Virus record (IMG/VR): IMGVR_UViG_2740892258_000006
Direction: 5' to 3' (one strand)
Length of the DNA stretch: 16,486 nt
Origin: a virus
Lineage: Duplodnaviria; Heunggongvirae; Uroviricota; Caudoviricetes
Below, piece by piece: positions 1 to 14,500 of the stretch. Numbering within the stretch: the stretch's first letter is position 1; each line of letters starts with the position of its first letter. A program made the translations under genes and the position numbers. Under the pieces are notes generated by a model. That model was not told the DNA's origin. It did no database searches and saw only the letters and a program-made list of their open reading frames with translations.

Positions 1-158
1 AGGAATAAGGCAAACCCAAGCGGTGCTTTCGACTGCACCATCCCCTGCGCAGCCATTACATCCGTAATTGTTAAACCACCCGAGCCTGTCGCCGATGCGT
101 CATCGCTCAATTTTGGAGATTTTGGGGAGTAATATTTCGGTAAGGCTTCAAGGTTCAT
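1..158 (-). CDS. Q: Antitermination protein Q (lambda Q-type), N-terminal 52 codons; gene runs off the left edge
   Basis: ATG at 158-156 with GGAG 7 nt upstream; translation MNLEALPKYYSPKSPKLSDDASATGSGGLTITDVMAAQGMVQSKAPLGFALF closely parallels the lambda Q N-terminus as I recall it (MRLESVAKFHSPKSP...GTDVMAAMGMAQSQAGFGMAAF). Confidence 0.7.
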   Translation of the reverse strand, partial: MNLEALPKYYSPKSPKLSDDASATGSGGLTITDVMAAQGMVQSKAPLGFALF

Positions 159-171
159 GCTCGTTCTCCAC

Positions 172-1077
172 TTACACCAGTACGCCAATTGCCAGCGCAC
201 GATCGATAAAACGAAATATCAGCTCCAGCTGGGAGCCATACATCTCTTCAAATGCCACGGTATCCGCATGCAGCTCGTCGTGATGCTTTCTGCACAAAGG
301 CAACACAAAAAGGTCATGCGCTTTTGTACCCATTCCACCCTGTCCGTGGCCTATCAGGTGGTGGGGATCATCAGCGGGCTTTCCACAACATGCACACGAC
401 TGTGTCTTAACCCAGCGCGTGTACTTTTCATTAACCCAGCGGCGACGTTTTGGGCGTAACATAAAAGACTCCGGCGACTCCGGATCCACTTTCAGCGCCA
501 GCACCTTTTTCGCCTTATCCTGGATGATGCTGGTGGCAGGAACCGAAGGCACAAGGTCACTTTCCCGGGTGACAGACGGCACAACAGGCTTCGGTAATCT
601 CAGTGCCTTACGGGCTGCACTTTCCGGTAAGGCATCCGCCAGATCATTACGAACCAGCCACCAGCACAGTTCCGGCATTGTCACAACGTGACTGTCATCA
701 AAACCGAGATCCCGACGCACAACAGACAACACCCAGCGGGCACAGTTATCCGTTGCCATTGATTCCAGCCGTTCCGTGAACTGATCGCGAAGCAGGTTAT
801 CGCAGTGCCAGCACAGACGGATTGCGCCCGGCGCGTGTCGCATTGTGGTCATGTTCTCGCTGTGCCAGTCGGAATGAGGCCACTGACAGCCCTTTTCACG
901 AAGTAACCAGCTTTCAAGACATTCCACACCCCCCGCACGACGAATAACTGCCTCATTGCGGAACACGGCCCGAATGGCAGGATCATCCGCCAGCGGTTGT
1001 GATGCCGCCGGAACGGCACCACTGGCAAAAGATGAATAACGTTCCGGCTCAGGCTCCAGCAGGACACGCCCCTGCAT
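172..1077 (-). CDS. Phage protein with C-terminal Cys/His zinc-finger/HNH-like motif (DUF968-like, tentative)
   Basis: 301-aa ORF; C-terminal CACCGKPADDPHHLIGHG...LCRKHHDELH motif; sits between KilA-N gene and Q; start may lie further upstream (see finding on T6 run at 1119-1124). Confidence 0.6.
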   Translation of the reverse strand: MQGRVLLEPEPERYSSFASGAVPAASQPLADDPAIRAVFRNEAVIRRAGGVECLESWLLREKGCQWPHSDWHSENMTTMRHAPGAIRLCWHCDNLLRDQFTERLESMATDNCARWVLSVVRRDLGFDDSHVVTMPELCWWLVRNDLADALPESAARKALRLPKPVVPSVTRESDLVPSVPATSIIQDKAKKVLALKVDPESPESFMLRPKRRRWVNEKYTRWVKTQSCACCGKPADDPHHLIGHGQGGMGTKAHDLFVLPLCRKHHDELHADTVAFEEMYGSQLELIFRFIDRALAIGVLV

Positions 1078-1243
1078 AAACAGCCGAACATGCAGCCTTT
1101 CGCCGTCAGCGACCAGAATTTTTTGATGTTGTTAATCGCTGTACGGCTGTATCGTTCGCGCTGTTCGACGATCCCCAGCTTCGCCATCTGGTGATATGCC
1201 TGATTAGCCGTAAGGCGGATACCATACTGTTTCAGCAGTGCAC

Positions 1244-1692
1244 TCAGCGACAGTGTCGGGCGACTTGAGCCATCAGGCGCGTCAGCAGGAGCATCAATGG
1301 CATAGCGCGGTGCGGTGTGCTGGTTACCATATCGAAAGTACGGATCACCTTCAGATGGAATGACGGGCTTATCCACATTGCATAGGCATACACCAGTTCT
1401 TTGCAGACATACGTCCCCTGGTTATTTCCGCCACGAATAACGTTAACTGGCTCTATATTGACCGAGTTGCAAATCTGCAACTCGCTTATTAAACGTTCAG
1501 TTTGCTCATTGCGGAGCCAGAATGCAGGCTTATGCTTATCCAGAGAACCGGCAGCCCTGTGCAGATCGTTCAGGCTGTAACGCCCATAAGCATCACGACG
1601 AACTTCAATACCATCTGCAGATCGTTCAGGCTGTAACGCCCATAAGCATCACGACGAACTTCAATACCATCAATAACCATCAGATTATTCAT
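1244..1692 (-). pseudogene. KilA-N domain protein (antirepressor-like), frame broken by a 56-bp tandem duplication
   Basis: ATG at 1692 with GGAGAAACGAAGT upstream; MNNLMVIDGIEVRRDAYGRYSLNDLHRAAG... joins ORF 1244..1480 (…ICNSVNIEPVNVIRGGNNQGTYVCKELVYAYAMWISPSFHLKVIRTFD) only if one copy of 1560-1671 is removed. Confidence 0.55.
1560..1671. repeat. Perfect tandem duplication, 2 x 56 bp (1560-1615 = 1616-1671)
   Basis: Identical copies read directly from sequence; inside KilA-N gene. Confidence 0.95.
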
Positions 1693-1711
1693 ACTTCGTT
1701 TCTCCTCTTAA

Positions 1712-2157
1712 TCAGGCAGCTGCACCCGCCGTTTTCTCGTACTTACTGATAGTGATCTCGACCTTCCCTTCCGGGATAACCGGTCCCCACTCCACCAGCA
1801 TTCTTTTCACCTGACTGTCGTCTTCCCACACACCCGCGTGGGTCAGGGCGTCAAACAGCGCCTTGTTATAGTTGTCCAGATCGCGGATCCGGTTATCCGG
1901 AGGAAACAACACGATCTCCACTGAAGCAGGTGCCGACGTTGGTTTCGGTTATCCGGAGGAAACAACACGATCTCCACTGAAGCAGGTGCCGACGTTGGTT
2001 TTGGCAGACGACGTAACTGCTCAACTATTGCTGCACACGCCGCGCTCTGGAATTTGCGCCCCGCCGCGCTTATCAGGCTCTTACCAGCAAACGCCCCTTT
2101 GTTGGGGTGTCGCCAGTACGTGTTCACGCTGGGCGGAAACGGCAGAATCAGCTTCAT
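1712..2157 (-). pseudogene. rusA: Holliday-junction resolvase RusA, frame broken by a 56-bp tandem duplication
   Basis: ORFs 1843..2157 (MKLILPFPPSVNTYWRH...) and 1712..1921 (...DNRIRDLDNYNKALFDALTHAGVWEDDSQV...) join into about 129 aa RusA-like protein when one duplicated copy is removed; ATGA stop/start overlap with upstream gene. Confidence 0.7.
1890..2001. repeat. Perfect tandem duplication, 2 x 56 bp (1890-1945 = 1946-2001)
   Basis: Identical copies read directly from sequence; inside rusA. Confidence 0.95.
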
Positions 2158-2480
2158 ACTTTCAGGCCCCTCTCATGTAACCAGTGGGCTGCACGCAGCC
2201 TGGCGTTTTCCTTACCGGCAAGCAGTGAGCGGATAATCCCGACCGCCTCGCTGTCGTCGTCCTTCACCGCGGTATGAAGAGTGATACCCCGGGCCACGCC
2301 ACGCTTTATCGTGATGACGCCTTTTTTCTCCAGTGCTCGAAGATGCTCCACCGCTGCATTCACTGAACGGTATCCCAGCATGGTTGCCACCTCCTGATTG
2401 GTTGGCGGGAAGCCACGTTCTTTCTGATAAGAAATCAGCATATCCAGCACCTGCTGCTGGCATTGAGTTAACGTCGTCAT
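2154..2480 (-). CDS. LexA N-terminal DNA-binding-domain protein (winged helix), phage regulator
   Basis: 108 aa; MTTLTQCQQQVLDMLISYQKERGFPPTNQEVATMLGYRSVNAAVEHLRALEKKGVI parallels LexA N-terminus; ATGA overlaps with neighbours on both sides. Confidence 0.65.
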   Translation of the reverse strand: MTTLTQCQQQVLDMLISYQKERGFPPTNQEVATMLGYRSVNAAVEHLRALEKKGVITIKRGVARGITLHTAVKDDDSEAVGIIRSLLAGKENARLRAAHWLHERGLKV

Positions 2481-3130
2481 GCCGCCATCTCCCTGAGCAG
2501 TTTTTCCGCCTGCTGGCGAACCTGCGCCAGAAACGCCTCACCACATGCCTCAAGTTCATCGCGCCCGATGTAGCTGATTGCCGGTCCCTTCCAGGTCTTG
2601 TCAAAAACAGCAATAGCACCAGCGAAGAAAGCTCCTGTCGGCACCTGCTTCTCGTCTTTCGGGATAAACCAGACAGGCAGTTCAAAACCAATACGCCCGC
2701 GAATAAAAGCAATATGATCTGCATCTTCCGGCCACCACACTTCGCTGGTGGCAGCTTTGATCAGGAAAACATAGCGCCCGCCTTTATCACGCATGGCACT
2801 GGCATGCTTCATGATGTAACGCATGCCGGTGATGTATTGCCCCTCATGCTGACTGGCGCGGCTGTATGGGGGATTACCAAAGGCAGCACCTTTAAGCTCC
2901 GCAAGACGTTCTGACCAGTCATGCGCCAGCGCATTGTCTTCCGCCGTGTAATACGCGGCACATTTGGCGTTACCACCGTCGGTGAACAGATCCAGAACAA
3001 ACGGGCCAAACAGGGTGTTAATTCCCCAGAAAATGTTGTCCGGCGTGCGCCACTGATCGCCCACTTCCTTCAGTTCATGGGCTGGTTTGTTCCGCAGCTC
3101 CACCAGCGCCTGGCAATATTTATTACTCAT
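2477..3130 (-). CDS. Phage DNA N6-adenine methyltransferase (Dam-like, orphan)
   Basis: NPPY motif (AFGNPPYSRA); start taken at ATG 3130 (MSNKYCQ...) where TAATG overlaps upstream stop; ORF track extends to 3163. Confidence 0.7.
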   Translation of the reverse strand: MSNKYCQALVELRNKPAHELKEVGDQWRTPDNIFWGINTLFGPFVLDLFTDGGNAKCAAYYTAEDNALAHDWSERLAELKGAAFGNPPYSRASQHEGQYITGMRYIMKHASAMRDKGGRYVFLIKAATSEVWWPEDADHIAFIRGRIGFELPVWFIPKDEKQVPTGAFFAGAIAVFDKTWKGPAISYIGRDELEACGEAFLAQVRQQAEKLLREMAA

Positions 3131-3624
3131 TAAGCCCCCACGTAATTCCCTGACAGATACCACTCTTCACCCGATGCAGCGCGCTTGCTGCTTTTCCGTA
3201 AGCACCGCTCACGACGCGCCAGAAAATTGTTTCGTTCTGGCTGGGAGTGGCTTTCACGGAATGCCGCCATCCACACGGTTGCAGCACGACGGTATAAACC
3301 CCTGGACTCCAGTTCTTCAGCCTGGCGGGTCAGGCACAAAATCACCCGTGGATCGTTAGTGCCGACATAGAAATTGCGCACAGGTCTGGTTTCTCGAACT
3401 GGTTGTGGTTCCGGTTCCTGCGCTCTCTCAGTCAGGCGCGGGAAATGTCTGCGTGTATCTCCTTCACAACGGTGAGCCACACGCCCACTCTGACGTAACT
3501 TGCTTGCTGACTGCAGAACGCGCTGTCGTGAGTAACCTGCAAAAGCATCCGCAATGTCACCGGAAGTACACCCCGGATGGGCTTCAATGAATTTCTGAAC
3601 GTCATTTAACAGACTCATGATCAC
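3130..3624 (-). CDS. Phage regulatory protein, C-terminal half PerC/Pch-like
   Basis: LESRGLYRRAATVWMAAF resembles the PerC-family GLWRRAA..W motif; N-terminal half looks winged-helix-like; GTG 3624 or ATG 3618 start overlapping upstream TGA. Confidence 0.5.
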   Translation of the reverse strand: MIMSLLNDVQKFIEAHPGCTSGDIADAFAGYSRQRVLQSASKLRQSGRVAHRCEGDTRRHFPRLTERAQEPEPQPVRETRPVRNFYVGTNDPRVILCLTRQAEELESRGLYRRAATVWMAAFRESHSQPERNNFLARRERCLRKSSKRAASGEEWYLSGNYVGA

Positions 3625-4154
3625 CCCCTGAATCCTGCCGGGATCTGGCTGTAGTCCACGTTGTCGTAACTGGCTTTGAAGTACGGGTCCTCGCGTTTTT
3701 CGGTGTACGTACTTACGGACGGCGATAAGCGCAGGGAAAGCTCATCCCATTTTTCCCGCAGCTTCGACGGGCTGAGCACGTTACGGCACCAGAACGGATC
3801 GCGGCTGACGCGGCTGTACATCTCGCAGATTTGTTTGTGAGTACGACCATCCTGCACACACATCAGGCGAATTTCGTTTGCCCAGGCTGTCCAGTTCGGT
3901 TCTTTGGGACGAACCACCTCGCCGTCACATTCGGCAGCCTGCTCGTACAGGGCGATGATTTTTTTCCAGAGCCACTGTGCGCAGGTCAAATCATCCTGCG
4001 TTCCCCACTGGCGCTTTTTAGGGCTGAATACAACAGCATCAGGATGGCGAGTTAAAAACTCCTGTTCAGCCGTCTGCGTGTCCGGTTGCGAAGCGTCCGG
4101 ACGAGAAGTTTTTTTCAGTTGCGAGCGACGGTAGTGTGTTGTTAAACTGTTCAT
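3621..4154 (-). CDS. Hypothetical phage early protein (177 aa), function not assigned
   Basis: Intact ORF, translationally coupled (ATGA) to upstream CII-like gene; Trp/Cys-rich C-terminal region. Confidence 0.55.
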   Translation of the reverse strand: MNSLTTHYRRSQLKKTSRPDASQPDTQTAEQEFLTRHPDAVVFSPKKRQWGTQDDLTCAQWLWKKIIALYEQAAECDGEVVRPKEPNWTAWANEIRLMCVQDGRTHKQICEMYSRVSRDPFWCRNVLSPSKLREKWDELSLRLSPSVSTYTEKREDPYFKASYDNVDYSQIPAGFRG

Positions 4155-4238
4155 GCGTTAGTTTCTCCACAGTCACGACACGCCACGGCGCCCGGAGCTG
4201 CACACTCGCGGGCGTCACTACTTTCTGAAACGCAAAAG

Positions 4239-4338
4239 ATTTTGTAGACCAGTGCTGCATGCTCCTGCAGCTTCGAAATTGAGAGGTAATTTTGTAGACC
4301 AGTGCTGCATGCTCCTGCAGCTTCGAAATTGAGAGGTA
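4239..4338. repeat. Perfect tandem duplication, 2 x 50 bp (4239-4288 = 4289-4338)
   Basis: Identical copies read directly from sequence. Confidence 0.95.
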
Positions 4339-4545
4339 CAGCTCATCGTTAATTGCTGTCTTCTCATGCGGTTCCACTACACCGTCTTCAATTGCTGAAC
4401 GAATCTGTTTTGAATAACTGCCGATCTGTTCAATGACCTCCAGCAGGCGTTGGTTGATATCGGCGTTGTCCACATCCTCGACGTCAGGAAGAGACACAAA
4501 GACGCCATTTGCAGACTGCGCCACAGCATCAGCAATGAAGTGAGT

Positions 4546-4567
4546 GCCACCAGCACGCCACCAGCAC
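4546..4567. repeat. Perfect tandem duplication, 2 x 11 bp (ccaccagcacg, phase ambiguous by one base)
   Basis: Read directly from sequence; both flanking ORFs encode RAGG across it. Confidence 0.85.
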
Positions 4568-4806
4568 GCTGTAAAACCATTGCCCATCCCAGCGGGAAAA
4601 TCTGATCGCCATCTGCACGAAGGCGGTTGAATAAAGCGTTTTCTGTTACATCGAGCCAGTCAGCCGCTTCAGCGTAACCACCCGGCAACGCCGCGATCGT
4701 TTTTCTGACAGCTTTCACGTACCACTCAGGCTGTTTTTCTATTTTCCAGTGATGCTTACCCACGATTAGCCTCATCGTTCTGTGGTTAAAAATTGAAAGT
4801 GTTCTG

Positions 4807-5007
4807 CTAATCTTTCGGATAGATATCCGGTCTTAAGTCAGATTTCGTAATTGCACCTGACGTGCATTGCTCAAGTTTTTTAGCCAGCACAAAACTGGCT
4901 TTTTTATAGCCATTGAAAACCAGCCGTAAGTAGCCAGGTGTTGAGCCAACTTTTCCGGCCAACTCGCCCTGCTGTTCTTTGGTTAAAGAGTCCCAATACG
5001 CTTTCAT
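4807..5007 (-). CDS. cro: Cro-like small HTH repressor
   Basis: 66-aa ORF (MKAYWDSLTKEQQGELAGKVGSTPGYLRLVFNGYKK...) divergent from cI-like gene; GGAGG upstream; start at 5007 within longer ORF 4807..5310. Confidence 0.6.
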   Translation of the reverse strand: MKAYWDSLTKEQQGELAGKVGSTPGYLRLVFNGYKKASFVLAKKLEQCTSGAITKSDLRPDIYPKD

Positions 5008-5013
5008 ACAATG

Positions 5014-5079
5014 TGTACCTCCGGTGTACATATTACATGATTGAAATGAACCTTCAAGATACTTGTACCTTAACGGTAC
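5014..5079. promoter_or_regulatory. Immunity-region operators and divergent promoters: O1 TGTACCtccggTGTACA (5014-5030), O2 TGTACCttaacGGTACA (5063-5079); PR-like -10 TAATAT (5030-5035) and -35 CTTGAA (5053-5058) on minus strand
   Basis: Two 17-bp dyad sites sharing TGTACC half-sites between divergent cro and cI starts; 17-bp spacer between -35 and -10. Confidence 0.5.
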
Positions 5080-5097
5080 AAGGGTTTTAATTTCGTT

Positions 5098-5772
5098 ATG
5101 AAAACAATCCATGACATCCGGCGGTCTAACGCCAGAAAACTGAGAGATGGTGTTGGCGGGAATTCTTCCTTTGCCACTATGATTGATCGCGAGCCAACCC
5201 AGACCAGCAGGTTTATGGGAGATGGTGCTACTAAAAATATCGGTGACAGCATGGCACGACACATCGAAAAATGTTTCGACCTGCCTGTCGGATGGCTCGA
5301 TCAAGAACACCAGACAACGAACATCACAAAAAAACCTGATGTTTCAATCACTAATAAACAAATCACATTAGTCCCTGTCATATCATGGGTACAGGCCGGA
5401 GCATGGAAAGAAGTTGGATATTCTGAGGTTGATTTGAGCACAGCAGAAACGTATCCCTGCCCTGTACCCTGTGGGGAAATGACTTATATCTTGCGGGTGA
5501 TAGGTGATTCAATGATTGATGAGTACCGCCCGGGAGACATGATTTTTGTCGATCCTGAAGTACCTGCCTGCCACGGTGACGACGTTATTGCATTGATGCA
5601 CGATACAGGTGAAACCACCTTCAAAAGGTTGATAGAAGATGGGACACAGCGTTATCTCAAAGCGTTAAACCCAAACTGGCCTGAGCCTTACATTAAGATC
5701 AACGGTAATTGCTCTATAATTGGTACTGTGATTTTCTCAGGAAAACCAAGAAGATACAAAATCAAAGCCTAA
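5098..5772 (+). CDS. cI: CI-like prophage repressor (HTH N-terminus + S24 LexA-type peptidase C-terminus)
   Basis: C-terminal GDSM Ser motif and downstream Lys (TFKRL) of S24 autopeptidases; divergent from cro. Confidence 0.8.
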   Translation: MKTIHDIRRSNARKLRDGVGGNSSFATMIDREPTQTSRFMGDGATKNIGDSMARHIEKCFDLPVGWLDQEHQTTNITKKPDVSITNKQITLVPVISWVQAGAWKEVGYSEVDLSTAETYPCPVPCGEMTYILRVIGDSMIDEYRPGDMIFVDPEVPACHGDDVIALMHDTGETTFKRLIEDGTQRYLKALNPNWPEPYIKINGNCSIIGTVIFSGKPRRYKIKA

Positions 5773-5784
5773 TCAATGTTTATG

Positions 5785-5807
5785 AACCTGCTTCGGCAGG
5801 TTTTTTT
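5785..5807 (+). terminator. Rho-independent terminator after cI (aacctgc-ttcg-gcaggtt + T7)
   Basis: 7-bp GC-containing stem, 4-nt loop, T-run. Confidence 0.7.
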
Positions 5808-5924
5808 ATACTTGACAATGTACCTTTGAGATACATAATGTACCCAAGAGAAACAACAAACAGGCAGGACGCCCACGAAGTAGCCGCCTGGGGCATATGA
5901 AGTCCAGGATGATTCGTTAGCAAC

Positions 5925-5947
5925 AAAAAAGCGCCCTATAGGACGCT
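5925..5947 (-). terminator. Rho-independent terminator for the LprI-like gene (agcgucc-uaua-gggcgcu + U6 on minus strand)
   Basis: Hairpin with one G-U pair followed by T6, 28 nt after the stop. Confidence 0.55.
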
Positions 5948-5974
5948 TCGCTCTTTAACAATCTGGATGACTTA

Positions 5975-6487
5975 TTACTCAGATTTGAACTTTGGTTCTG
6001 GCAAAAGAGGAGGAGTTGAGTCCTCGAATCGTAGCCAGTGCTCCCAGATATCGTGGGATTGTAATTCCAGAAGACCAATTTGACGTGATGCAACTGCAGT
6101 GCCAGCTATAGTTCCTCCTGCATAATCAACCTGGACGGACTTTGACGCTTTCTCAATTAATTCTGTCCAAGCTTCACTTTCCGCGTTAAAAGAAGCAGTT
6201 AATTCCTGCAGACGCTGTGGATCATCCTTGTTGTCTTGTTTCAAACGATTCAGGGCGGCCACCGAATACTTATTCTTAACCCAACTAACCTGAGCTAACT
6301 GAACTCTCTGACAAGCGTCCATATCAGTAGTTGTTTCCTGAGGCATATCAAAGCAGGAAATAAAAAAAGTCTCAACACCATCATTTAGACTACTGCTCGG
6401 CTGGTTCAAAGCATCAGAAGCATTGGATGCTATCGGTATTATCAGTGCTACCGACAGAATCAAACGTTTAACATAAATCGCTCCCAT
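5975..6487 (-). CDS. Secreted/periplasmic protein with signal peptide, LprI-like (DUF1311) fold suspected; moron
   Basis: N-terminal MGAIYVKRLILSVALIIPIASNA signal-like sequence; Cys...Cys and Trp/Tyr spacing reminiscent of DUF1311; antisense to surrounding operon; own terminator. Confidence 0.5.
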   Translation of the reverse strand: MGAIYVKRLILSVALIIPIASNASDALNQPSSSLNDGVETFFISCFDMPQETTTDMDACQRVQLAQVSWVKNKYSVAALNRLKQDNKDDPQRLQELTASFNAESEAWTELIEKASKSVQVDYAGGTIAGTAVASRQIGLLELQSHDIWEHWLRFEDSTPPLLPEPKFKSE

Positions 6488-6968
6488 TTAATTATCCCCT
6501 CTAAGAACAGAGTCATCCAGATTAGCCGAATCCTTGTTGTTGGGGAATAACCAGGCCCACCTCGCCTGATGTGGCTAAAAGCAGGCACATAACAGCTAAG
6601 TATTTTCAACCAGAGAGAATCCTTAGCGTTGTGGTGAATGCGGCTCAGCGCACGCGGGTTAAGGTTGAGGCTGACAGTCGACCTTCTGTGGATACCCACC
6701 CGCCTGGTGTGCAACCTTCGCCAGGCACCGGGAGGCACCCGGCACCACAACTTTATGCTGTGTGTAGTCCTGGCGGTACCAGCATGCCCTTATTTCTGCT
6801 CAGGGTGTTAATGAAATTATCAGTAAGATTGGTGCCGACGCAGTGGCATTACCTGAAAATTTCCGCATTCATGATCTGGAAAAATTTAATTTAAATCGCT
6901 TCCGTTTCCGTGGTGCGCTTTCCACTGCCAGCATCGATGACTTTACCCGTTATTCTAAAGATCTTGCG

Positions 6969-7080
6969 GATGAAGGCACCCGCTGCTTTATCGATGCCGA
7001 TAATATGCGTGCCGTCAGTGTGCTGATGAAGGCACCCGCTGCTTTATCGATGCCGATAATATGCGTGCCGTCAGTGTGCT
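6969..7080. repeat. Perfect tandem duplication, 2 x 56 bp (6969-7024 = 7025-7080)
   Basis: Identical copies read directly from sequence. Confidence 0.95.
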
Positions 7081-7204
7081 TAACCTGGGTACTATTGATG
7101 AGCCTGGTCACGCAGATAACACCGCCACTCTCAAACTGAAAAAGACAGCACCGTTCTCTGCTCTGTTGTCTGTTAATGGCGAGCGTCATTCCCAGAAGTC
7201 ACTG

Positions 7205-7316
7205 GCAGAATGGATTGAAGACTGGGCCGACTACCTTGTGGGCTTTGATGCTAATGGTGAGCAGAATGGATTGAAGACTGGGCCGACTACCTTGTGGGCT
7301 TTGATGCTAATGGTGA
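7205..7316. repeat. Perfect tandem duplication, 2 x 56 bp (7205-7260 = 7261-7316)
   Basis: Identical copies read directly from sequence. Confidence 0.95.
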
Positions 7317-7980
7317 TGCCATTCAGGCAACAAAAGCGGCTGCGGCAGTCCGTAAAATCACGATTGAAGCAAACCAGACCGCTGATTTTGAAGACAATGA
7401 CTTCAGCGGCAAACGCTCCCTGATGGAGTCTGTCGAAGCGAAGACCAAAGATATTATGCCAGTGGCATTTGAATTTAAATGCGTTCCGTTTGAAGGCCTG
7501 AAAGAACGTCCGTTTAAATTACGCCTCAGCATTATCACTGGCGATCGTCCTGTACTGGTTCTGCGCATTATTCAGCTGGAAGCAGTGCAGGAAGAAATGG
7601 CTAACGAATTTCGTGATCTGCTTGTTGAGAAATTCAAGGACAGCAAAGTAGAAACCTTTATTGGTACTTTTACCGCCTGATTTCATTACTGCAAATGCCC
7701 CTGCGGGGGCATTTATGGAAACGTAATTGACTCAATAATCGCCGGATGGTGAGGGCTTTCTTTTACCAGAATTCAGCGCGGTGCAGCGCATATACGTGGA
7801 GAACAAAATGTCATTTATTAAAACTTTTTCCGGGAAGCATTTTTATTATGACAGGATAAATAAAGACGACATCGTTATTAACGATATCGCGGTTTCTCTT
7901 TCAAATATCTGTCGCTTTGCAGGACATCTTTCACATTTCTACAGCGTCGCCCAACATGCGGTGCTTTGCAGCCAACTGGT

Positions 7981-8092
7981 ACCGCAGGAATTTGCTTTTG
8001 AAGCGTTAATGCATGATGCAACAGAAGCGTATTGCCACCGCAGGAATTTGCTTTTGAAGCGTTAATGCATGATGCAACAGAAGCGTATTGCC
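7981..8092. repeat. Perfect tandem duplication, 2 x 56 bp (7981-8036 = 8037-8092)
   Basis: Identical copies read directly from sequence. Confidence 0.95.
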
Positions 8093-8222
8093 AGGACATC
8101 CCCGCGCCGCTGAAACGCCTTCTTCCTGACTATAAACGGATGGAAGAAAAAATAGACGCCGTAATCCGTGAGAAATACGGGTTACCCCCGGTTATGAGTA
8201 CGCCCGTGAAATATGCCGATCT

Positions 8223-8334
8223 CATCATGCTGGCAACCGAACGCCGCGATCTCGGGCTTGATGATGGCTCTTTCTGGCCATCATGCTGGCAACCGAACGC
8301 CGCGATCTCGGGCTTGATGATGGCTCTTTCTGGC
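8223..8334. repeat. Perfect tandem duplication, 2 x 56 bp (8223-8278 = 8279-8334)
   Basis: Identical copies read directly from sequence. Confidence 0.95.
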
Positions 8335-8552
8335 CCGTACTGGAAGGTATCCCGGCAACAGAGATGTTCAAAGTTATTCCACTGTCGCCAGGCCATACCT
8401 ATGGGATGTTTATGGAACGCTTTAAAGAGTTAACTGAGTCGTAAAAATCAGCACGTACGAATTCAAACTCTGCCATAAAAGAACATATAAGTAATTTATT
8501 AACATATAGATATAGGTTATATTACAAATTGAAAAATTATTGGAGAGCAACA

Positions 8553-9419
8553 ATGAATCAAAATCCATTCTCATTCTATGACTTTCTTGGATATTTAATA
8601 CCAGGTGGTTTTTTTATCCTATTAATGTATTTCTGTGGTTTGACATTCGATCTAGATATTGTTATTGACTTAAGTGAATTGCTCAGAGGTCAAAGTCAAA
8701 TCTTTGGCATTTTGAACTACGCTTCAATAGTTATTATATCTTATATAGCTGGACATTTTATTTCTATCACGTCAGCATTTTTTATCGAAAAATACATGAA
8801 TAAAGAATTAGGATATCCTTCCAAATATCTATTTAAAAAATTGATAGATACCTCAGAAAGCATTTGTAGCCCATCATGCGATGAGAGAAGCGCTGATAAA
8901 AAAACAAAAATAAAGAATCGCATAATCAAATGCGTATTATGTCCAATAATACTATGGGATTTTATAACACAAAAACTATGTTATTCTCAATCTCTACCAT
9001 TTCATTTAGCTAATACAACATGGTTAATGATCAAAGAAGGTTATGAGAAAAAGTTCATAACAAATCGCCAATTATTACAAGATAAAAACGGACTTGATGA
9101 TGATCTCTTCAGATTGGCATATCATTATGTTTATGAGTTTTCAAAACAACATCAAACAAAAATTCAAAACTATGTTGCATTATATGGTTTTTGCAGAAAC
9201 ATATGTTTAATCTTTATAATTTCATTTTGGGTATCAGTTCCAACCTTTATTTATCGATTATGTACTCATAGTGATTATCTTTATAGTTTACTTTCAATAA
9301 TGCTTAGCTTTTTCTTCGTCTATGTTTTCTATGTTGGTTTTGTTAAATTTTATAGAAGATATACTTTAGAAGTATTAATGGCATTTGCTGTACTTCAAAG
9401 TAACGACACTATTCGTTAA
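8553..9419 (+). CDS. AT-rich multi-pass membrane protein (4-5 predicted TM helices), moron of unknown function
   Basis: ATG 8553 with GGAGA 7 nt upstream; hydrophobic segments FLGYLIPGGFFILLMYF, IFGILNYASIVIISYIAGHFI, ICLIFIISFWVSVPTFIY, LLSIMLSFFFVYVFYVGFV; strongly AT-rich versus neighbours. Confidence 0.6.
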   Translation: MNQNPFSFYDFLGYLIPGGFFILLMYFCGLTFDLDIVIDLSELLRGQSQIFGILNYASIVIISYIAGHFISITSAFFIEKYMNKELGYPSKYLFKKLIDTSESICSPSCDERSADKKTKIKNRIIKCVLCPIILWDFITQKLCYSQSLPFHLANTTWLMIKEGYEKKFITNRQLLQDKNGLDDDLFRLAYHYVYEFSKQHQTKIQNYVALYGFCRNICLIFIISFWVSVPTFIYRLCTHSDYLYSLLSIMLSFFFVYVFYVGFVKFYRRYTLEVLMAFAVLQSNDTIR

Positions 9420-9460
9420 TAATGTTGCTCCCGTGTGCAGACGGGATAATGGAGAAACGT

Positions 9461-9667
9461 ATGCTGAACCTCGATTGTGTTCCTATCTCAACTTATTGCA
9501 AAGAAACTGGCGAAACTCCTGAAGCAATAAACAAACGTGTACAGCGCGGTGTTTGGCGTGAAGGTGTTCAGGTTTTAAAGGTTGAAGGCGTTAAGGAGAG
9601 GTGGATTGATCTTAGTGAGGTTGCAAAATGGGCCAGACAAAACTGCTCAAACTACCGCGCGGCGTAA
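9461..9667 (+). CDS. xis: Excisionase-like protein (Xis)
   Basis: Small basic protein directly upstream of and overlapping int; start at ATG 9461 (GGAG 6 nt upstream) within ORF 9422..9667. Confidence 0.6.
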   Translation: MLNLDCVPISTYCKETGETPEAINKRVQRGVWREGVQVLKVEGVKERWIDLSEVAKWARQNCSNYRAA

Positions 9668-10800
9668 CAATCAGGAAACACCACCAGGGAGAAACGATCA
9701 ATATAACTTTCACCTACAAAGGAGTTAGATGTCGTGAGCCGCTTTCCAATCTGGAAGTAACACCAAAGAACATTAAATACGCCGAGCGTACACTCGGCGA
9801 AATCCATAATAAGATCGAAAGGGGAACATTCATTTATGCAGAATATTTTCCCCGTTCTGCTCGTTTGAAAATTTTTGGTAATGCTGCTGCAAGCAAAACG
9901 GTAAAGATGTACCTGGACGAATATCTTGAAATCTGCGAAACAAGAAAACTTTCACCCTCTACGATTGGTGGCTATAAAAAATGCCGTAGTGCGTTAGCCT
10001 CACTTCACATTTGCCCTGCAAGTGAATTAACACCAGCAACCCTGAAAGCGTGGATTCAAAGCCAGAAAACAACCTTAAAAACCATTCGCAACCAGTTATC
10101 TTTCCTACGGTCAGCACTTGATGAAGCCGTGACCGATGGGGTACTTCAAATTAACCCCGTATCGTTAGTAACAGCTTCGCGCTACCAAAGTGATAAGTCA
10201 GAAGCAGAAAGCAGCTATGTGGTTGATCCGCTATCACCAGCAGAAGTTGATGCATTACTAGCAGCAGCCGGAAACAAACAATGGGAAAATCTGTTCCGGT
10301 TCGCCATACATACAGGCCTGCGTAGTTCTGAATTATGTGCCCTACGATGGCATGATATCGACTTTGTTGGAAAAACAGCCCATGTTCAGAGCGCAAGTGT
10401 TGTCGGAGTTATCAAAGGAACAAAGACAAAAGCCGGTACCCGTAAAGTTGAACTGACTGAAGAAGCAATGTTGGCGTTGATAAACCAGAAGCCATTTACA
10501 TTCATGAAGGATGCTACTGTCTTTGAAGATCCAAAGACCAATAAACCCTGGGCAAGTGCTGATGCAATTAGGAAAAAAGCATGGGTGCCAACATTGCGAA
10601 AAGCAGGTATTCGTTACAGAAACCCATATCAAACCAGGCATACATTCGCCACCAGCCATATCAGCCGGGGAGCAAACCTGTTTTGGCTTGCGGCTCAAAT
10701 GGGCCATAAAGGGCCTGAAATGTTATTCAGGCACTATGGACAATACTTGAAAGAGTATGATGGGAGGGCAAGTATCAAGGATAAAAAGGCTTTATTTTAA
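9628..10800 (+). CDS. int: Tyrosine site-specific integrase (lambda-type with N-terminal arm-binding domain)
   Basis: 390 aa; catalytic-domain signatures HTGLRSSELCALRW (Arg), RHTFATSH (His-x-x-Arg), GHKGPEMLFRHYGQY (His...Tyr). Confidence 0.9.
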   Translation: MGQTKLLKLPRGVTIRKHHQGETINITFTYKGVRCREPLSNLEVTPKNIKYAERTLGEIHNKIERGTFIYAEYFPRSARLKIFGNAAASKTVKMYLDEYLEICETRKLSPSTIGGYKKCRSALASLHICPASELTPATLKAWIQSQKTTLKTIRNQLSFLRSALDEAVTDGVLQINPVSLVTASRYQSDKSEAESSYVVDPLSPAEVDALLAAAGNKQWENLFRFAIHTGLRSSELCALRWHDIDFVGKTAHVQSASVVGVIKGTKTKAGTRKVELTEEAMLALINQKPFTFMKDATVFEDPKTNKPWASADAIRKKAWVPTLRKAGIRYRNPYQTRHTFATSHISRGANLFWLAAQMGHKGPEMLFRHYGQYLKEYDGRASIKDKKALF

Positions 10801-11409
10801 GTCATTATGCCAATCGTCTACTGTTTGAAACCAAATTTTTAACCTTTGCATAAAGGTACGATCCTTTTTGGGAGGGTGGTACCTTTGAAAAGAAGTATGT
10901 AACGCTTCGATAACTCCCATACAAGCATCAATTACTTCTTGTGCTTTAACCGGGCGATCGGCATCTGAAAGCTTGTGAGCGACCTCACAATCCAGAGTTG
11001 CTTTCTCTAGTACAGATGAGAACACCTCGTCAGGTATATACAGTCCTCTGCTTTCCAAAATGCAAATCAGTTTGGAAACTTGTTGAGCTTTAGCCAAGAT
11101 AGTTAACAAGTATGAAACAGAAGCCTTTGTTCTATCCTTTTGCAACCTTAACAATCGATGCTTTGATGCTCTAATTTTAGGTTGAGTTGTCTGACTGAGC
11201 CAATAGTTAGAAGAAATATCAGAAATTTCAATAACTAACTTTGAAATAGCATCAATAATTGATTTCGATTCAGAACGTGTCGCCAGTTTTACAGAATTAT
11301 TGTACGCAACTCGCCATCCAATGAAAACTAAGCAGACGCTAACTACTGTGATACACCACGAATACTGTCCTATTTGTGCTACTAATGACATTGGTTCCGT
11401 ACTGATCAA
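10792..11409 (-). CDS. Cargo operon gene C: membrane-anchored protein (one N-terminal TM helix, helical soluble domain), unknown function
   Basis: TTG start at 11409 with AAGAGG overlapping upstream stop (alternative ATG 11391); TM segment YSWCITVVSVCLVFIGWRVAY; 3' end overlaps int by 9 nt. Confidence 0.6.
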   Translation of the reverse strand: MISTEPMSLVAQIGQYSWCITVVSVCLVFIGWRVAYNNSVKLATRSESKSIIDAISKLVIEISDISSNYWLSQTTQPKIRASKHRLLRLQKDRTKASVSYLLTILAKAQQVSKLICILESRGLYIPDEVFSSVLEKATLDCEVAHKLSDADRPVKAQEVIDACMGVIEALHTSFQRYHPPKKDRTFMQRLKIWFQTVDDWHNDLK

Positions 11410-11419
11410 CTATCGCCTC

Positions 11420-11746
11420 TTATACTCTTTCTGGTTGTGCTAAATCAATAAATTTATCAATCTGTTCTTTGTAGAACGGAACATCACTTTTTATAATCAA
11501 ACGTGCTTTAACGTTGGCTTTAGGTATCCCTTCCTTACGGATGAGACCTCCAAACGCCTCTTCTAAGAAAGAGGAACCAACACCCAGTGCTATACCGCGA
11601 AAATCAACCACAATCTCCTGTTCAGTACCCTTCAGCGCAGGCACCAAAAACTCTCTACGAAATCTTTCCGCACTGTGTGGGCTATCCGTTGTGTAACGTC
11701 CGAAAGGTGTTCTGGAGAACTCCTTCGCTATGACGATATTTCTCAT
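11420..11746 (-). CDS. Cargo operon gene B: small STAS-like protein (DUF4325-like, tentative)
   Basis: 108 aa; AGGAG 8 nt upstream of ATG 11746; motif EIVVDFRGIALGVGSSFLEEAFGGLI resembles STAS-like DUF4325 as I recall it; 4-nt gap to gene A. Confidence 0.6.
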   Translation of the reverse strand: MRNIVIAKEFSRTPFGRYTTDSPHSAERFRREFLVPALKGTEQEIVVDFRGIALGVGSSFLEEAFGGLIRKEGIPKANVKARLIIKSDVPFYKEQIDKFIDLAQPERV

Positions 11747-11750
11747 AAAA

Positions 11751-12662
11751 TCATCTCCTGGGAACCAGCGACCATTGTAGTAAAGTACCCGGTATGTACT
11801 CAGCTAGCTTCTCACATCGAGGACTACTGTCATTAGAATTATAGCTATAACGAGCCCTTCCTGTTAGTATCAGAAGTGTCTCATTATCCTCACAACCTGC
11901 CCCAATAGGTCTCTTGATATCTTCAGAGCCATTTCCCCGTCCGGAACCAACAAAGCGGGATTCCCCTACTAACATAGCTCTTTCCACAGAAGATACTTCG
12001 TTTTGAATGCTATGACCATCACCATTAGGCACGAAACTTCTATAAATCCCCAATCCAAGGTCACAAACGATAAAAACGACTTTATTTTCATCACGATTGA
12101 ACCAAGCGCACTGCCACCATCGTTTACCTTTGAGAAGCTGAATATCTGACTCGAACCCCTCATCTTCATACGCATGATGAGAAACATTGAGCAAAGCTTC
12201 ACTAATCGCTGTCAGCAGTAAGCCTAACTGTTCATTATTAAGCAGAGCACTTTTCTGCAGCATGAGTACTGTTTCAACAATATGCTCGTAAGGTTCGACA
12301 GCTGACTGAAAGTATCGTTCCTCCCTCGTAAGTGCATTCAGTTTCTCTTCTGTGCCAGCAAGCAAAGCACGAGCAAGTCCAGTACCAACGATCCATCTAT
12401 GCCCAGATGGGTTATCATCCTTTTTAGGCCATTTAAAACGTATAAAATTAGGGTCCCGGGTTAAAAATTGAGCTCTATTTACTATGGCAAAGAACAGTAC
12501 CGATGCCGCAGCTGAGGCAAATTTTACCTTGGACAAATCAACTATAACTCGACCTTTATTTTTTACTCCAATCGATTCAATCGAGTTGATGAAGTTCAAT
12601 GTCCCAGCCCTAGAATCATCTGAGTAAATGCAAAATTTGCTTGGGGGTACCAGTATGGTCAT
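11751..12662 (-). CDS. Cargo operon gene A: GHKL (histidine-kinase-like) ATPase with unassigned N-terminal domain
   Basis: 303 aa; Bergerat-fold motifs in the C-terminal half: N-box EALLNVSHHA, G1 CDLGLGI, G2 GSGRGNG. Confidence 0.65.
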   Translation of the reverse strand: MTILVPPSKFCIYSDDSRAGTLNFINSIESIGVKNKGRVIVDLSKVKFASAAASVLFFAIVNRAQFLTRDPNFIRFKWPKKDDNPSGHRWIVGTGLARALLAGTEEKLNALTREERYFQSAVEPYEHIVETVLMLQKSALLNNEQLGLLLTAISEALLNVSHHAYEDEGFESDIQLLKGKRWWQCAWFNRDENKVVFIVCDLGLGIYRSFVPNGDGHSIQNEVSSVERAMLVGESRFVGSGRGNGSEDIKRPIGAGCEDNETLLILTGRARYSYNSNDSSPRCEKLAEYIPGTLLQWSLVPRR

Positions 12663-12813
12663 AGCGATGTCATTCTTATACGATGGATTTATAGATTATC
12701 TACTATTCATAGTTGGTTATGAAGACTGGGATATAACAGTAAAAGATACGTGTAAGATCCGCAAGATAGTTAATGTCGAAAAAATCATTAATTACATCAA
12801 GTTAGTGATATTT

Positions 12814-12851
12814 GGACTCGGGTTCAACTCCCGCCAGCCAATCATGATTGG
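12814..12851 (+). other. Candidate att remnant: 25-nt match to the 3' end of tmRNA/ssrA (GGACtCGGGTTCAACTCCCGCCAGC) followed by perfect palindrome CCAATCATGATTGG (12838-12851)
   Basis: Recalled E. coli ssrA 3' end is ...GGACGCGGGTTCAACTCCCGCCAGCTCCACCA; one mismatch here and divergence after CAGC. Confidence 0.55.
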
Positions 12852-12970
12852 ACGGTGTAAGGACTACACCAACAAAAACAGGAAGTTATAAGTCTCAGCA
12901 GGACACCGACCAGACGGTGAGGAGACAAAAAAGGATACGCAACGGAGTCGCGACTCCCTATGACATTAAA

Positions 12971-12993
12971 GCCCGCTGATGCGGGCTTTTTTA
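12971..12993 (+). terminator. Rho-independent terminator (gcccgc-tgat-gcgggc + T6)
   Basis: Perfect 6-bp GC stem, 4-nt loop, T-run; lies about 130 bp downstream of the ssrA-like fragment. Confidence 0.65.
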
Positions 12994-13299
12994 TTGGTCC
13001 TGACCCGCCCTGAATAGAATTCATCCAATTACAGTCCAGACATATACAGTATCCCTCAGCTCAGTATCAGCTTCTCGACAAATGGTCACTGTTATTTACC
13101 CGTTGCCAGAAAGAGAATAATTTGCCCCCATAGCCAGCCTTCCCGGAATCTGTATATTCATTAATATTGTTATCGATTCCATCAAGTAACATAGGTTGGA
13201 TGCGATTGATCTTACTCACATTAGTCGACACGGAACTCAGTAAGTTGAACTCTGAAAAAGCAGTTTAAATAGCATTTAAACAAATGCCACCAGTTCGAA

Positions 13300-14500
<1,201 letters not shown>

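Follow-up and report, generated by a model that had tools for sequence, protein, structure and literature searches.

A 50-bp tandem repeat in the ymfL gene of an E. coli K1 prophage is very probably an assembly artefact

The 50-bp tandem repeat that disrupts the prophage regulator gene ymfL in the deposited sequence is very probably an artefact of a short-read draft assembly and not a mutation; we base this reading on the geometry of the repeat, the uniqueness of its junction and the restoration of the gene once the extra copies are removed. The repeat lies in a window of 16,486 bp, by which we mean the whole stretch of DNA that was analysed. An earlier note, made from the letters alone, had claimed a 50-bp exact tandem duplication at 4239-4288 and 4289-4338, and both Tandem Repeats Finder and a direct scan of the window bore it out, the two copies being identical at 50 of 50 positions. 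In 16.5 kb, chance cannot produce an exact tandem match of this length. The array consists of exactly 2.0 copies (100 nt) without extension, and when a partial third copy or flanking microhomology was looked for at its ends, none was found. The repeat falls within ymfL, a gene on the minus strand, where it lies at codons 139-155 of 183. The biological duplication that the earlier note implied was not sustained, because the repeat has the exact geometry of a join in an assembly graph.

The window corresponds to contig CVOH01000132.1 (16,486 bp, GCA_001245225.1), which it matched base for base over window positions 1-14154, and CVOH00000000 is the Illumina draft assembly of the E. coli K1 strain A192PP. 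For the parent strain A192, the same laboratory obtained MiSeq 2x151 reads and, using Velvet and VelvetOptimiser, built from them 627 contigs that it ordered against IHE3034; for A192PP, whose raw reads are in ENA under PRJEB9141, the authors report zero structural variants by read mapping. The locus is a lambdoid prophage adjoining glaH-lhgO-gabD in E. coli of phylogroup B2/ST95. Between the prophage integrase and glaH there are three functionally unassigned minus-strand genes (10792-12662) with products of 303 aa, 108 aa (DUF4325, STAS-like) and 205 aa. A PADLOC search of these genes beside the integrase returned zero matches, and the three could be prophage cargo. Beside the cI-like repressor gene, another minus-strand gene (5975-6487) encodes a 170-aa hypothetical protein, also without a PADLOC match; the second prophage of IHE3034 contains a paralog of this gene, with ~92% DNA identity over the aligned 109 nt (ref 8956-9064, where ref denotes reference coordinates).

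Alignment of the window with UTI89 yielded 13 collinear blocks of ~100% identity, with eight back-steps (duplications) and four gaps (185, 145, 756 and 640 nt) between them. The window therefore contains 12 structural joins, namely six 56-bp, one 50-bp and one 11-bp tandem duplications and four clean deletions (Table 1), all of them within 8 kb of otherwise identical sequence, and it contains zero Ns. The 56-bp duplications come in pairs, which bracket segments of 330, 236 and 242 nt. The sequence lost at the four deletion joins is present in all close relatives, and what is lost with the 756-nt stretch is the DUF4222 gene, a spacer, most of a ymfM-like ORF and the 149 N-terminal codons of an O-like replication gene. 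Since adjacent nodes of a de Bruijn graph have k-1 bases in common, duplications of 56 bp suggest k = 57. The lengths of the eight duplications (56 six times, 50 and 11) agree with this value, since the modal length equals k-1 and is never exceeded.

Table 1. Positions of the repeat, of the other structural joins and of the affected reading frames in the window
Feature	Positions	Strand	Remarks
Join with 185 nt missing (ref 3267-3451)	1083..1084		DUF968/KilA-N boundary
Join with 145 nt missing (ref 3682-3826)	1313..1314		In KilA-N; equals a 257-nt shared run minus 112
Exact tandem duplication, 56 bp x2	1560..1671		Join 1615/1616, KilA-N gene
Exact tandem duplication, 56 bp x2	1890..2001		Join 1945/1946, RusA gene
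Artefactual chimeric ORF, 177 aa	3621..4154	-	13 ymfM-like codons plus the C-terminal 164 aa of the O-like HTH replication protein
Join with 756 nt missing (ref 6517-7272)	4115..4116		
ymfL as written (CII-like regulator, YmfL family)	4151..4763	-	61 extra nt
62-nt stretch common to both prophage ymfL copies (ref 7390-7451)	4233..4344		Partly written twice
Copy 1 of the 50-bp repeat	4239..4288		Last 50 nt of block 6 (window 4116-4288 = ref 7273-7445)
Copy 2 of the 50-bp repeat	4289..4338		First 50 nt of block 7 (window 4289-4557 = ref 7396-7664)
Tandem duplication, 11 bp (GCCACCAGCAC x2.2)	4546..4569		Join of blocks 7/8 (4557/4558)
Join with 640 nt missing (ref 9879-10518)	6782..6783		yfdP and start of YfdQ-family gene
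Exact tandem duplication, 56 bp x2	6969..7080		Join 7024/7025, YfdQ-family gene
Exact tandem duplication, 56 bp x2	7205..7316		Join 7260/7261, YfdQ-family gene
Exact tandem duplication, 56 bp x2	7981..8093		Join 8036/8037, yfdR
Exact tandem duplication, 56 bp x2	8223..8335		Join 8278/8279, yfdR

The finished genome of IHE3034 carries a second prophage at 558-572 kb, and beneath each of the four join clusters this prophage shares 96-97% identity with the cognate prophage; the paralogous regions are yfdP-yfdR, DUF968-KilA-N-RusA and PerC-O-DUF4222-ymfL. Within yfdP-yfdR, each duplicated 56-mer was the first or the last 56 nt of a run identical between the prophage copies, and the 640-nt gap started and ended at edge points of such shared runs. 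The segment at 7025-7260 was closer to the paralogous YfdQ-family gene of IHE3034 (561 kb) than to the cognate copy. We counted a block end as a branch point when it coincided with a site at which the two prophage copies differ or was separated from such a site by exactly 56 nt. With the paralog taken from IHE3034, and not from A192PP, 23 of the 24 block ends were exact k = 57 branch points and the 24th fell within a 1-nt alignment ambiguity, while a random position passes the same test at 5.9%. When k was scanned from 45 to 69, a single peak appeared at 57, with 23 block ends as against at most 10 at any other value. A SNP-bubble test against UTI89 was discarded: SNPs were not found directly inside the 56-bp overlaps, and UTI89 proved to be the wrong comparator, as the differences from the paralogous prophage fit exactly.

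The same geometry accounted for the 50-bp repeat to the nucleotide. Before the paralog was examined, we predicted identity of the two ymfL copies over the 62 nt of ref 7390-7451 and differences at 7389 and 7452, and the paralog shows exactly that. Block 6 ends at 7445, which is 7389 + 56, and block 7 starts at 7396, which is 7452 - 56, so that the two overlap by 50 nt; expressed as an offset, 62 - 2x56 = -50, hence a 50-bp duplication. On the window, the first 56 nt of the shared stretch occupy 4233-4288 and the last 56 nt occupy 4289-4344, with the differences between cognate and paralog flanking it at 4232 and 4345. Similarly, the 11-bp duplication falls on a shared run of 101 nt (ref 7609-7709; 101 - 112 = -11), for which both block ends were confirmed, and the edges of the 756-nt gap correspond to 6516 = 6460 + 56 and 7273 = 7329 - 56. 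In general, subtracting 112 from the shared length gives the offset at the join.

The junctions themselves were restricted to this assembly in the collections that we searched. The junction of the 50-bp repeat, used as a 27+27-nt probe, was found in 0 of 5,426 complete E. coli genomes. Records of complete genomes that matched this part of ymfL numbered more than 2,400, and in the best matches the 181-nt query collapsed to 131 nt, that is, to a single copy. The exact junction 40-mer of the repeat, AGCTTCGAAATTGAGAGGTAATTTTGTAGACCAGTGCTGC, was absent from IMG/VR, the GTDB representative genomes and the JGI metagenome contigs. A pooled probe for the other 11 junctions was likewise without a hit in the 5,426 complete E. 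coli genomes, the best matches ending exactly at a junction, and junction 4115/4116 was present in none of the 5,426. These absences weigh against a real 50-bp tandem duplication in the ymfL gene of A192PP, generated by replication slippage or unequal exchange and inactivating the CII-like regulator of one prophage, which we regard as highly improbable. The exactness of the repeat and its presence in a deposited record would suit such an event, as young tandem duplications are expected to be identical and prophage genes can decay, but an array of exactly 2.0 copies without flanking microhomology, whose two ends both lie 56 nt from a cognate/paralog difference for no biological reason, would not. 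Moreover, a real duplication would have to be one of 12 joins that share a geometry within 8 kb of otherwise identical sequence, and the read mapping by the authors revealed no structural variants in A192PP.

The effect of the repeat on ymfL could be undone by removing the extra copies. In the gene as it stands in the contig, the frame is lost at the 11-bp duplication (codons 66-69) and shifted a second time at the 50-bp one (codons 139-155); without the 11-nt and 50-nt extra copies, YmfL was restored over 183/183 aa and was identical to WP_000515830.1 of UTI89 and IHE3034. The repaired protein scored 51.5 bits against Pfam PF06892 (Phage_CP76, phage regulatory protein CII (CP76); cut-off 26) and 169.9 bits against the NCBIfam equivalog NF041471 for YmfL (cut-off 90). 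As it lies above both curated cut-offs, 'CII-like' is a fair label, and the proposal that the repeat sits in a CII-like gene was correct. The gene comes after a cI-like (Peptidase_S24) gene and a cro-like (YdaS-type HTH) gene. The earlier note had also attributed to the repeat a frameshift near the 3' end by which the natural TGA is missed. The frameshift and the missed stop were confirmed, and comparison with UTI89 identified the TGA at 4151-4153 (complement) as the genuine stop codon of YmfL. The first lesion, however, is not the 50-bp repeat but the 11-bp duplication, which shifts the frame earlier, at about codon 69. Overall, the ymfL gene itself is almost certainly ordinary and its apparent disruption not real.

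The second part of that claim concerned the ATG of the next gene, which overlaps the ymfL stop. In the intact UTI89 sequence, a ymfM-like ORF of 112 aa begins with an ATG that overlaps the stop codon of ymfL (ATGA), and this ORF is 96% identical to the YmfM-annotated ORF of phage SKA5, which likewise overlaps the ymfL stop by 4 nt. RefSeq does not list this ORF in UTI89 or IHE3034; instead, part of it is covered by an annotated 59-aa DUF4222 gene that uses a different frame. A fortuitous start was considered for the overlapping ATG and was ruled out by the 112-aa ORF. The ATG is a genuine ymfM-type start, but the ORF that follows it in the window is a chimera created at join 4115/4116. The full ymfM-like ORF is found at L001 6973-7311 (minus strand), and only its first 13 codons (4116-4154) are left in the window, where the fusion point of the 177-aa chimera coincides with that join. 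In protein collections, the chimera is known from one contig only, CVOH01000132.1, and a protein look-up of the 173-aa ORF that spans the 50-bp duplication gave zero records. With regard to the function of this pair of genes, the SOS-inducible division inhibitor SfiC of e14 is ymfM, not ymfL.

Apart from the joins, the window differed from its relatives at eight sites, of which seven had the paralog allele and one the IHE3034 allele. The seven (868-869, 7177, 7187, 7189, 8103 and 8109) are clustered substitutions in the prophage part, relative to UTI89 and IHE3034, that carry the allele of the second IHE3034 prophage, while the one substitution on the host side agrees with IHE3034. Alleles become mixed when a graph assembler merges bubbles, as in the Tour Bus step of Velvet, and the mixed paralog alleles in the window probably come from merged graph bubbles rather than from real variants or gene conversion. 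Recombination between prophages is well known, and a true exchange between the two A192PP prophages, by recombination or gene conversion, leaving a mosaic locus with the paralog alleles, deletions and duplications as by-products, would be in keeping with seven substitutions that are all paralog alleles in short tracts. We nonetheless find this very hard to credit, because aligned homologous exchange yields neither fixed 56-bp duplications nor offsets equal to the run length minus 112, a peak at exactly k = 57 indicates software and not recombination, and the mixing of alleles in shared nodes is itself a product of bubble merging. Once its graph artefacts are set aside, the contig is the sequence of the close relative IHE3034.

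The assembly artefact that we favour would have arisen as follows. A192PP, like IHE3034, would hold two lambdoid prophages ~96% identical over their early regions, and a de Bruijn graph with k = 57 would split the two copies into copy-specific and shared nodes, neighbours overlapping by k-1 = 56 nt. The contig would then be 13 nodes written in full, end to end, with overlaps untrimmed and gaps unmarked. Wherever a shared node was kept, a 56-bp duplication would be expected on each side of it, and the kept nodes would be those of 330, 236 and 242 nt; being shared by two copies, they would carry mixed alleles. Wherever a shared node of length L was omitted, the copy-specific nodes on either side would be offset by L - 112, so that the 50-bp duplication would follow from L = 62, the 11-bp duplication from L = 101 and the 145-nt deletion from L = 257. 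The default output limit of Velvet is 2k, here 114 nt (Velvet manual). The omitted nodes of 62 and 101 nt are both below 114 nt, which fits their having been dropped by this limit. The use of Velvet with k = 57 is suggested by the methods of the sister strain together with the geometry of the joins. In the real DNA there is most likely one copy of the 50-bp sequence and an intact ymfL, followed by the ymfM-like, DUF4222 and O-like genes as in IHE3034. None of the observations calls for a biological event.

An unmodified assembler would normally trim the overlaps or insert Ns, and a separate joining step therefore has to be assumed. This need could also be taken to speak for some other in-silico change made after assembly and independent of any de Bruijn graph, for instance manual editing or a consensus step with false structural variant calls, as could the ordering of the project's contigs against IHE3034. 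Such a process would still have to produce k = 57 node boundaries at 24/24 ends, which reduces it to a variant of the assembly artefact with only the joining tool differing; as an independent origin, it is extremely improbable. There is scarcely any chance, finally, that A192PP, which was passaged twice through neonatal rats, truly acquired the 50-bp duplication and the other rearrangements, with YmfL knocked out and the k-mer agreement a coincidence.

The 50-bp repeat is thus without biological importance, and its value lies in data hygiene. The 12 false structural changes break at least eight prophage genes in the deposited contig, namely the DUF968, KilA-N, RusA and O-like replication genes, the ymfM-like ORF with DUF4222, ymfL, yfdP with the YfdQ-family gene, and yfdR. 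The result is proteins found nowhere else, for example the 177-aa chimera that now stands in protein collections. GCA_001245225.1 served as the mapping reference in a TraDIS (transposon-insertion) study of essential genes (PMC5847654), and the false frameshifts and chimeric ORFs may affect its gene-level calls in prophage regions, where caution is deserved. For genome scans, we suggest the rule that, when a draft contig shows several exact tandem duplications that all have the same length, these be taken as a signature of untrimmed k-1 overlaps and be filtered out before any biological interpretation. A literature search for described k-1 overlap duplications returned only general papers on misassembly.

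Compared with known systems, the repaired gene belongs with the YmfL/CII regulators of lambdoid and e14-like prophages, its product being identical to WP_000515830.1. The repeat resembles slipped-strand tandem duplications in being head-to-tail, exact, coding and frameshifting, but it differs from them in having no microhomology at its ends, in boundaries set by k-mers relative to a paralog and in the company of six further 56-bp events. The closer likeness is to the false duplications and gaps that de Bruijn assemblies produce at contig joins, through untrimmed k-1 overlaps and repeat nodes placed once: in the window, too, the duplications are capped at 56, the joins lie where repeat copies diverge or converge, alleles are mixed and the junctions are confined to one assembly. 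The repeat departs from the typical k-1 duplication in measuring 50 bp and not 56, a difference that corresponds to the dropping of a 62-nt shared node (6 k-mers).
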